DNA of 29,939 bases from the IMG/VR virus record IMGVR_UViG_2585428015_000008. The stretch is one strand, 5' to 3'. The stretch comes from a virus. Taxonomy: Duplodnaviria > Heunggongvirae > Uroviricota > Caudoviricetes. Of this stretch, positions 24,001 through 27,000 are shown in pieces. Every line of letters starts with the position of its first letter. Within the stretch, counting starts at the first letter, position 1. The position numbers are program-made.

Positions 24001-27000
24001 GTACGCGTGAATGAATGGTTCAGCGCGTATGCGATGGCGGGTGTGGCTTACAGCCGTGTGTCGACTTTTGCGTATTTTCATGAAAGGAGATCACTCAATA
24101 ACTTCCATCGAGATCGGGTAATAACATTTGAACAGATCGCTGAATAACATCGATGGAGATCACTTTTGACTCATTTTGTTATTCAGTGATCTCCATCAAT
24201 GTTATTGGAACTTCACAGGTGTGTTGATCTGTATCTTTTGCCATTCCGGTAAAGGATACCTATGCCAACAGTTCCAATTTCTATGAGAAAACTTAAAGAA
24301 ATTCTTAGGCTTAAATACGGTGTTGGACTCAGCCATCGACAAATTGGTCGTAGTCTTGCAATCTCCCCTTCCGTTGTATCCAGATATGCTAATCGGGCGG
24401 CTCAACTTGGCATAAAGCAGTGGCCCTTACCTACAGGATGGGATGATACAAAACTAAAACATGCGTTCCTTCAGACCCAGGTTAAGATGAAGAAGCACTC
24501 TCTGCCTGACTGGGCTACAGTACACCGGGAACTGCGTAATAAATGCGTGACGCTGCAGCTACTCTGGGAAGAATACTGTGAGCGTAATCCAGGCGGTTTT
24601 TACAGCTATAACCATTACTGCCGGATGTACCGTGAATGGCTCAAAACCACTTCACCATCAATGCGTCAGGTACATAAAGCTGGCGAAAAACTTTTCGTTG
24701 ATTACTGTGGACCTACCGTTGGCGTTACCGACCCTGAGACCGGAGAAATAAGAACTGCTCAGGTCATCGTAGCTGTTCTCGGGGCATCAAGTTACACATG
24801 GGCAGAGGCCACCTGGTCTCAGCAGCTTGAAGACTGGGTGATGAGTCATGTTCGCTGCTTCCAGTGGTTGGGTGGCGTTCCTGAACTTGTTGTTCCGGAC
24901 AATCTGAAAAGCGCCACATCCAGGGCATGTAAGTATGATCCTGACGTTAACCCTACCTACCAGCAGATGCTTGAGCATTATAATGTCGCAGTTTTGCCTG
25001 CGCGGCCACGTAAACCGAAAGATAAAGCCAAAGCTGAAGTTGGCGTTCAGGTTGTTGAACGCTGGATCATGGCCCGAATCAGGCATGAGATCTTCTACAG
25101 CCTTGCATCGCTTAATCAGCGCATTCGGGAGTTGCTGGAAAGACTGAATAACAAAATAATGCAGAAGTTGGGTTATTCACGTGCAGAACTCTTCATCCAG
25201 CTTGATAAACCCGCACTGAAGCCTCTTCCTGAAGCCAGTTACAGTTACACCCTGGTGAAGAAAGTCAGAGTTCATGCCGATTACCACGTGGAAATCGACA
25301 AACATTACTACTCGGTTCCATGTTCGCTGTTAGGCCAGCAACTGGAAGCATGGATCTCCGGAGAACTGGTAAGACTCTTCAATCAGGGGCAGGAGGTTGC
25401 TGTGCACCCGCGCAAGCGTACTTATGGCTACAGTACCCGCAACGAGCACATGCCTGAAGCTCATCGACAGCATGCCACCTGGACGCCAGAGCGTCTTCTG
25501 GAATGGGCGGGGCACATAGGCAGTGAAACTCATAGTTATGTGCTTCATATACTGAACTCTCGTCCACATCCGGAACAAAGCTATCGCTTCTGCCTTGGAC
25601 TCCTGAACCTTCATAAAAAATACAGTAAAGCCAGACTTAATGCAGCATGTGCAAGAGCTCTGAAAACAAAGGTATGGCGTCTGTCAGGTATTAAATCGAT
25701 CCTGGAAAAAGGTCTGGATAAACAACCTGTTCAGGATCCAAAACCAGATCTGTTATCCACGATGGAACACGAAAACGTACGCGGCAGTGAGTATTACCAC
25801 TGATACGGGATCCAATGATGAATCATCTTTACGAACAACTGACCGCACTTAAACTCACCGGCTTCCGTGATGCGCTTAAAAAGCAACTTGCTCAACCGGG
25901 CACATACCAGGAGCTGGGCTTCGAAGAACGCCTGTCATTACTGACAGCAGAAGAACTAACCTGCCGTGAAAACAGGAAGGCAGAGCGTCTGATCAAACAT
26001 GCACGGTTCAGACTTAATGCTGAGTTATCAAAGCTGGATTATCGTAACAATAGAGGGCTGGACAGGGCCCTCATCCGTTCACTCAGTCAGGGAAACTGGT
26101 TAACCCTGAAACAAAATATTTTACTGACCGGGGCCACCGGCAGCGGTAAAACGTTCCTGGCATGTGCACTTGGTCATAATGCCTGCCGACAGGGATACAA
26201 GGTCTACTATTATCGCCTTAAAGCGCTGATGGAACAGTGCTATCAGGGGCATGCTGATGGAAGATACAGCAAACTTTTGACCAGGCTGAATAATAGCGAT
26301 CTGCTGCTTCTGGATGACTGGGGGCTGGAACCTCTCTCATCAGAACAGCGTAGCGACCTGCTGGAAATAGTGGATCTGATGTACCAACGAGGCTCAATCA
26401 TCGTAGTGAGCCAGTTGCCGGTGGAAAACTGGTACAAAATGATCGGAGACTCCACACATGCGGATGCCATCCTAGATCGACTGGTTCATGGCAGTATCAA
26501 GATCGAACTTAAAGGAGAATCAATGCGGAAAATACAATCTCCGTTGACCGAAGGAGATCAGTGAAGGTAATTTAAAAACGGTTCTGTGAAAGTGACACGA
26601 ACCGATCTCCATCGATGTTACTCACCGATCTCCTTCACGGTAATACGCAGAACACGCATATTGATGGTGCCACCCTGACCGGTGAGGTTACTGGTGGTCA
26701 GTTTATGGAACGTTACCGGGGAGTCGCCTTTTGCAACAGCACGGCTCAGCGCGGCATCCGGTGTCGTCTGATTATCAAAGCGAATCTCCCCTGCGTTAAC
26801 AATATCGCCGGTACTGACCACATCACCATTCAGTACCATGCTGGCACCTTTACTGAGCTGTGTTCTGCCACTCAGATTTCCCCCGGCAGCCAGCGTCAGT
26901 GTTCCACGATGTCCGACAGTGGTGTTGCCAGCCTGTCCTCCGGCATTAACCGTAAAGCTGCCGCCATTTTCCAGCAGCAGGCCGCTGGCCTGACCGGAGA

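Follow-up and report, generated by a model that had tools for sequence, protein, structure and literature searches.

The 29,939-nucleotide stretch of DNA analysed here (the window) contains a complete copy of the insertion sequence ISEc12 that separates the 5′ part of the prophage gene lom from the 5′ part of flu/cah, a gene of the antigen-43 (Ag43) family. The two flanks come from loci that lie megabases apart and face opposite ways in finished genomes of close relatives. The most probable explanation, in our judgement, is that two separate simple ISEc12 insertions, one in each gene, were joined by the assembler through this multi-copy repeat. The weights that we give to this and to the other explanations were judged and not computed.

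ISEc12 and the genes it interrupts

The features of the window are collected in Table 1. Over its full 2,581 bp, the insertion sequence (IS) is 100% identical to copies annotated in RefSeq as “IS21-like element ISEc12 family” in TUM13881 and JJ1886; the name used here is based on the annotation of these identical copies rather than on the ISfinder reference sequence. The termini, TGCGTATT...AATACGCA, form imperfect inverted repeats of ca. 33 bp. The element has the 5′-TG...CA-3′ ends and reiterated sub-terminal motifs of the IS21 family (GGAGATC-type, with three or four at the left end and two at the right end), and the family's gene layout, with istA (DDE transposase) followed on the same strand, after 11 bp, by istB (AAA+ helper ATPase). 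The istA protein of DNA-identical ISEc12 copies is WP_001298859.1. Several ISEc12 copies are present per ST131 chromosome. The first-pass annotation of this DNA was right that an IS21-family element joins truncated lom and flu genes; the span that it proposed, 24059-26660, overshoots the true limits by ca. 10 bp on each side.

Table 1. Features of the window and of the sequences that adjoin ISEc12 in intact insertions
Feature	Position	Strand	Remarks
Prophage tail-tip gene J	20148..23621	+	directly upstream of lom
lom 5′ fragment (ST131 lambdoid prophage)	23689..24068	+	codons 1-126 plus 2 nt; Pfam Ail_Lom and JJ1886 identity
ISEc12 (IS21 family), complete, 2,581 bp	24069..26649	+	boundaries set by 10 copies that have clean duplications
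Left terminal inverted repeat (TGCGTATTTTCATGAAAGGAGATC...)	24069..24102	+	followed by reiterated GGAGATC-type motifs to ~24206
istA transposase, 513 aa	24262..25803	+	Pfam rve and Mu-transpos_C_2
istB helper ATPase, 249 aa	25815..26564	+	PF01695 IstB_IS21, E=2e-67
Right terminal inverted repeat (...GATCTCCTTCACGGTAATACGCA)	26617..26649	+	
GAACA, right-hand copy of the 5-bp flu::ISEc12 duplication	26650..26654	.	left-hand copy not beside the IS of the window
flu/cah (Ag43 family) 5′ fragment	26650..28225	-	codons 1-525 plus 1 nt; start at 28225, cut at 26650
Upstream region of flu, three GATC sites close together	28445..28485	-	intact; sequence read
YeeP-like GTPase gene	28598..29470	-	upstream of flu, fec-side island
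lom 3′ sequence ACTACTGATC			expected beside the right IS end
flu 3′ sequence ...AAGGCGAACA			expected beside the left IS end

The breakpoints earlier placed at about codon 126 of lom and, on the minus strand, at about codon 525 of flu were right. As in phage lambda, lom follows gene J and matches the Pfam family, but here it is interrupted: the remaining part covers positions 1-131 of the 199 positions of Ail_Lom, the last ca. 80 codons are lost to the insertion and, compared with the eight-stranded barrel of ca. 200 amino acids that makes up a full-length Ail/Lom protein, the lom of the window is a gene fragment. On the other side, the truncated flu reading frame continues into ISEc12 and reaches a stop at 26618, which yields a fusion of 535 amino acids. 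Of the parts of a full Ag43/Cah autotransporter (ESPR, AIDA passenger, autochaperone and C-terminal β-barrel), the ESPR signal and AIDA repeats are kept in this fragment, and the autochaperone AC_1 and Autotransporter β-barrel domains, which occupy residues 488-599 and 673-923 of the intact 948-aa Cah of JJ1886, are gone. The gene resembles agn43/flu/cah of the CP4-44 type in its Pfam match, in the YeeP-like GTPase gene and in the three-GATC upstream region; it differs from the K-12 gene in being interrupted and in lying on a fec-side island rather than at the CP4-44 position. The upstream region is presumably the Dam/OxyR phase-variation switch of agn43, and this control region is intact though its gene is broken.

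The IS is flanked as ...GTCGACTTT-IS-GAACACGC..., and no 4-8 bp target-site duplication is present around it (ACTTT on the left vs. GAACA on the right), as was reported before. Since clean duplications of 5-7 bp flank each of ten other ISEc12 copies in flu, the missing duplication is meaningful rather than a chance miss; these ten copies also answer the earlier proposal to look for direct repeats at other copies of this IS, and the view that the two flanks do not stem from one insertion event holds. The copy that interrupts tssM in ST131 clade C is reported to have a 5-bp duplication, ACTGC (PMC10711316), in agreement with the 5-7 bp seen in flu. That insertion is like the one studied here in sequence, in its length of 2,581 bp, in its istA and istB genes and in knocking out an accessory gene by simple insertion; the copy in the window differs in that its flanks come from two sites and share no duplication. 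The element itself is normal, and the mismatch belongs to its flanks.

Positions and junctions in finished genomes

Window positions 18617-26649, which comprise J, the lom fragment and the whole IS to its last base, are 100% identical to positions 1477914-1485946 of JJ1886 (NC_022648.1). Positions 26650-29939 match the opposite strand of JJ1886 with 100% identity, from 4943613 down to 4940324. The window joins, head-to-head, a point at 1.486 Mb that is read upward to a point at 4.944 Mb that is read downward; the two loci are 1.67 or 3.46 Mb apart, depending on the arc, and their genes face opposite ways. In JJ1886, the prophage is integrated in ompW, adjoining the trp operon, at 1.49 Mb, and an intact cah occupies the site at 4.94 Mb that corresponds to the right part of the window, on an island that adjoins the fec operon. 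If, as we take from the K-12 map, ompW/trp lie at ca. 28 min, fec at ca. 97 min, oriC at ca. 84 min and dif at ca. 34 min, these neighbours place both endpoints on the same replichore. The joined arrangement, lom 5′-IS-flu 5′, is absent from 5,426 complete RefSeq E. coli genomes (the best coverage is 83%), and the flu island was found beside this prophage in no relative examined among complete genomes and long contigs.

The left junction, between lom and the IS, is present in 345 complete genomes and matches the lineage-typical lom::ISEc12 of ST131. In 342 of them, with flanks of 1.5 kb taken into account, the IS is followed by lom 3′, and the same lom 5′-IS-lom 3′ order was seen at all ten places displayed for long contigs with the 152-aa lom-IS fusion (28 contigs read). 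Directly beyond the lom-borne ISEc12 of JJ1886 come lom 3′ and then the side tail-fibre genes. The first-pass annotation had suggested that the side tail-fibre genes were lost, together with the attachment site and the 3′ half of flu, and that the prophage is defective at this end. With lom 3′ and the tail-fibre genes retained in JJ1886 and in 342 of the 345 genomes, and with cah intact in JJ1886, neither statement is supported, and neither is an absence of DNA at this end of the prophage. Being an accessory gene, lom is uninformative about prophage viability when it is interrupted.

The lom::ISEc12 of ST131 is itself without a target-site duplication (ACTTT-IS-ACTAC, with ACTTT at window positions 24064-24068; the same in JJ1886), even in finished genomes that have lom 3′ beyond the IS. 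For the ca. 50 nt to the right of the lom-borne copy, the 5,426 complete E. coli genomes yielded no uninterrupted lom match, and the best candidates for an uninterrupted lom of the same allele, from which a duplication might be read, EcPF7 and 203740, diverge within these ca. 50 nt. This copy may have an older rearrangement history of its own, or the lom concerned may be a divergent loop allele.

For the right junction, a simple counterpart exists. In strain 2024CK-00475, ISEc12 is inserted at the identical flu base and in the same orientation, with GAACA on both sides and flu 3′ beyond, and in nine other complete genomes simple ISEc12 insertions, all with clean duplications of 5-7 bp, lie elsewhere in the gene. 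Since the 2024CK-00475 insertion has GAACA on both sides, the GAACA to the right of the IS in the window is half of a normal duplication. The flu junction of the window represents the right-hand side of an ordinary insertion of ISEc12, and the source strain therefore has, or had, a normal flu::ISEc12 besides the lineage-typical lom::ISEc12.

Within flu, ISEc12 occupies 11 or more sites between codons 452 and 691, with ten distinct simple insertions that show clean 5-7 bp duplications. The orientation is one way in 18 complete genomes vs. the other way in six to eight; since both occur, a strict orientation bias was rejected. The GAACA site at codon 525 has been used in three different backgrounds. 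Besides the window, it is occupied in the window's orientation in 2024CK-00475 and CAVP766 and in the opposite orientation in CUVET16-819, whose ISEc12 copy has later been interrupted by an IS3-family element.

The prophage part of the window shows several further features. A tandem repeat at positions 10209-10741 (162-bp unit, 3.3 copies, 95% matches) is in frame, with 54 amino acids per unit, and sits inside a large gene annotated as the portal protein gene in AR_451. At positions 1130-1133, a 4-bp target is present once, as a clean empty site; the same site holds the 1,249-bp ISEc52 in AR_451 and in many other finished ST131 genomes, and ISEc23 is found in the same prophage stretch in other finished ST131 genomes. 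The source strain is without these ISEc52 and ISEc23 insertions. That the contig merely skips other IS copies, a sign of reference-guided assembly, was considered and rejected, the empty site being a natural absence. The tape-measure gene (ca. 16220) is uninterrupted in the window and encodes 1,080 amino acids; in JJ1886, a chromosomal blaCTX-M-15 unit lies inside the tape-measure gene of the same prophage.

Origin of the join

The window is the whole of contig JDWQ01000560.1 from the draft assembly GCA_000699305.1, which, to judge from the contig number, has at least 560 contigs. Because the contig comes from so fragmented a draft and runs through a 2.58-kb multi-copy repeat, the linkage across the IS is possibly absent in the cell. 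We consider it probable that the source strain, an ST131 E. coli related to JJ1886 and EC958, has ISEc12 inserted at two or more separate places. One copy, typical of the lineage, would interrupt lom in the ompW-integrated prophage, and another would interrupt flu/cah at the GAACA of codon 525, in the island beside fec. Greedy extension or contig merging would have joined “lom 5′ plus IS” to “IS plus flu 5′” via their 2.58-kb overlap, and the window would pair the left flank of the lom insertion with the right flank of the flu insertion around one IS sequence. In such a strain, no DNA would have been deleted, and lom and flu would each have been knocked out by insertion. The comparisons establish what the element is, where both junctions lie, how they are oriented relative to complete genomes and which contig the window represents; that the linkage across the IS is artefactual we infer.

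Other assemblies of the same region bear on this point. The same 535-aa flu-IS fusion is encoded by 13 public contigs, ten of which were inspected. The far (left) IS end is the exact stopping point of four of them, two end 4 nt inside it and three stop within the IS, so that only JDWQ01000560.1 crosses into unique DNA. Five other contigs share the flu-IS junction of the window, and their right flanks are identical to those of the window. The contig is like known repeat-induced chimeric contigs in that it runs through a multi-copy repeat that exceeds the usual insert length and unites flanks that are distant in every finished relative; it is unlike the other assemblies of the flu-IS junction, which end at or within the repeat, and it is probably chimeric.

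The alternative with the next best claim, possible but in our opinion doubtful, is a real inversion, in which RecA-dependent recombination between inverted ISEc12 copies in lom and flu flipped the 1.67-Mb arc (equivalently, its 3.46-Mb complement) and produced lom 5′-IS-flu 5′, as in the window, and flu 3′-IS-lom 3′ elsewhere, with no DNA lost. It is to this extent that the idea of an exchange between two IS copies, put forward in the first-pass annotation alongside a deletion, survives. Recombination between inverted copies would yield precisely this head-to-head topology, both flanks retain their respective halves of a junction (with GAACA at flu), and the IS matches both kinds of copy at 100% identity. 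Two identical inverted copies of 2.58 kb are a good RecA substrate, which speaks against a join made by the assembler, and the contig does run across the IS. The contig begins in a SASA-family esterase gene of the prophage (position 1) and ends in a 305-aa island gene (position 29939), and both ends probably mark the limits of repeats that other prophages or islands also contain. If so, the assembler stopped at those repeats yet crossed ISEc12, and it did not cross repeats indiscriminately, which is a further point against an assembler join. Rearrangements through homologous exchange between IS copies are also known from IS100 (IS21 family) in Yersinia pestis and from IS-bounded inversions in finished ST131 genomes; if the join is real, the window shares with them the RecA exchange and the retention by each flank of its own half of the duplication. 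Among 222 finished ST131 genomes, 26 (ca. 12%) show synteny changes, mostly single inversions; they are often centred on the origin or terminus, roughly symmetrically, and are thought often to be deleterious (PMC11739808). The inversion required here would differ in that it would lie in one replichore and be supported by one draft contig.

Location within one replichore speaks against a real inversion, since 1.67 Mb would be reversed relative to replication and inversions within a single replichore are counter-selected. The zero count of the join among the 5,426 complete genomes and the fact that a multi-copy repeat of 2.58 kb is normally not resolvable in a fragmented draft also count against it. 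Because the four junctions between flanks and IS (lom 5′ to the left IS end, right IS end to lom 3′, flu 3′ to the left IS end and right IS end to flu 5′) are identical in the inverted and the uninverted state, short-insert reads are uninformative on the pairing of left and right flanks, and for the same reason exact-junction searches cannot separate the surviving models; telling the two states apart requires single or paired reads long enough to bridge 2.58 kb. Should GCA_000699305.1 have been built with mate-pair or long reads, the contig is real evidence of linkage.

A deletion, either adjacent to the IS and mediated by it or between direct IS copies, was the other event proposed earlier. 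It would have taken out the 3′ parts of lom and flu as well as the tail-fibre genes and the attachment site, and would have left the prophage truncated at this end. It agrees with the lack of a shared duplication and with the presence of only the 5′ parts of lom and flu in the window. A deletion joins points that are read in the same direction, so it cannot give the head-to-head junction of the window. It also presupposes flanks that were co-linear in the ancestor with dispensable DNA between them; in genomes with identical flanks, JJ1886 included, the loci are 1.67 or 3.46 Mb apart with flu pointing the wrong way, both arcs carry essential genes, and removal of either would be lethal. No relative examined has the flu island adjoining this prophage. 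Intact relatives, which were to have defined the deleted DNA, instead revealed distant loci in opposite orientation and no deletion. We regard a deletion as very improbable.

Least probable of all is a one-step intramolecular transposition, in which the right end of the lom copy would have attacked the GAACA of flu and generated an inversion and a second IS copy, with no earlier simple insertion in flu. The same two junctions would result, at a target that has been used repeatedly. However, IS21-family elements transpose by non-replicative insertion of an intermediate with abutted ends and not by replicative strand transfer, the five contigs with the same flu-IS junction and identical right flanks fit an inherited simple insertion, and every objection to a real inversion applies here too. 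Even taken together, the deletion and the one-step transposition receive only a small share of the probability. The reading that we prefer remains that of two simple insertions and an assembler-made join.

Consequences for the source strain

The IS, the kinds of insertion, IS-mediated inversion and chimeric contigs are all already known, and no new mechanism is needed to account for the window. Whichever linkage holds, insertion has inactivated lom and this Ag43 copy of the source strain; the truncated Ag43 cannot be displayed on the cell surface because its translocator domain is lost. The window serves mainly as a caution. Where a contig of a short-read draft runs through a multi-copy IS, neither a deletion nor a crippled prophage should be concluded from it: finished relatives retain the “missing” tail-fibre genes and the 3′ half of flu. 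If the inversion were true, a viable 1.67-Mb inversion within one replichore, from ompW/trp to fec, would be a natural case of a pandemic clone that tolerates a large asymmetric inversion.

The flu insertion marks a small ST131 sub-group that includes the five other contigs with the same junction and identical right flanks. The repeated insertion of ISEc12 in flu could reflect target preference or selection for loss of Ag43, and it bears modestly on the ways in which Ag43 is lost from ExPEC lineages.
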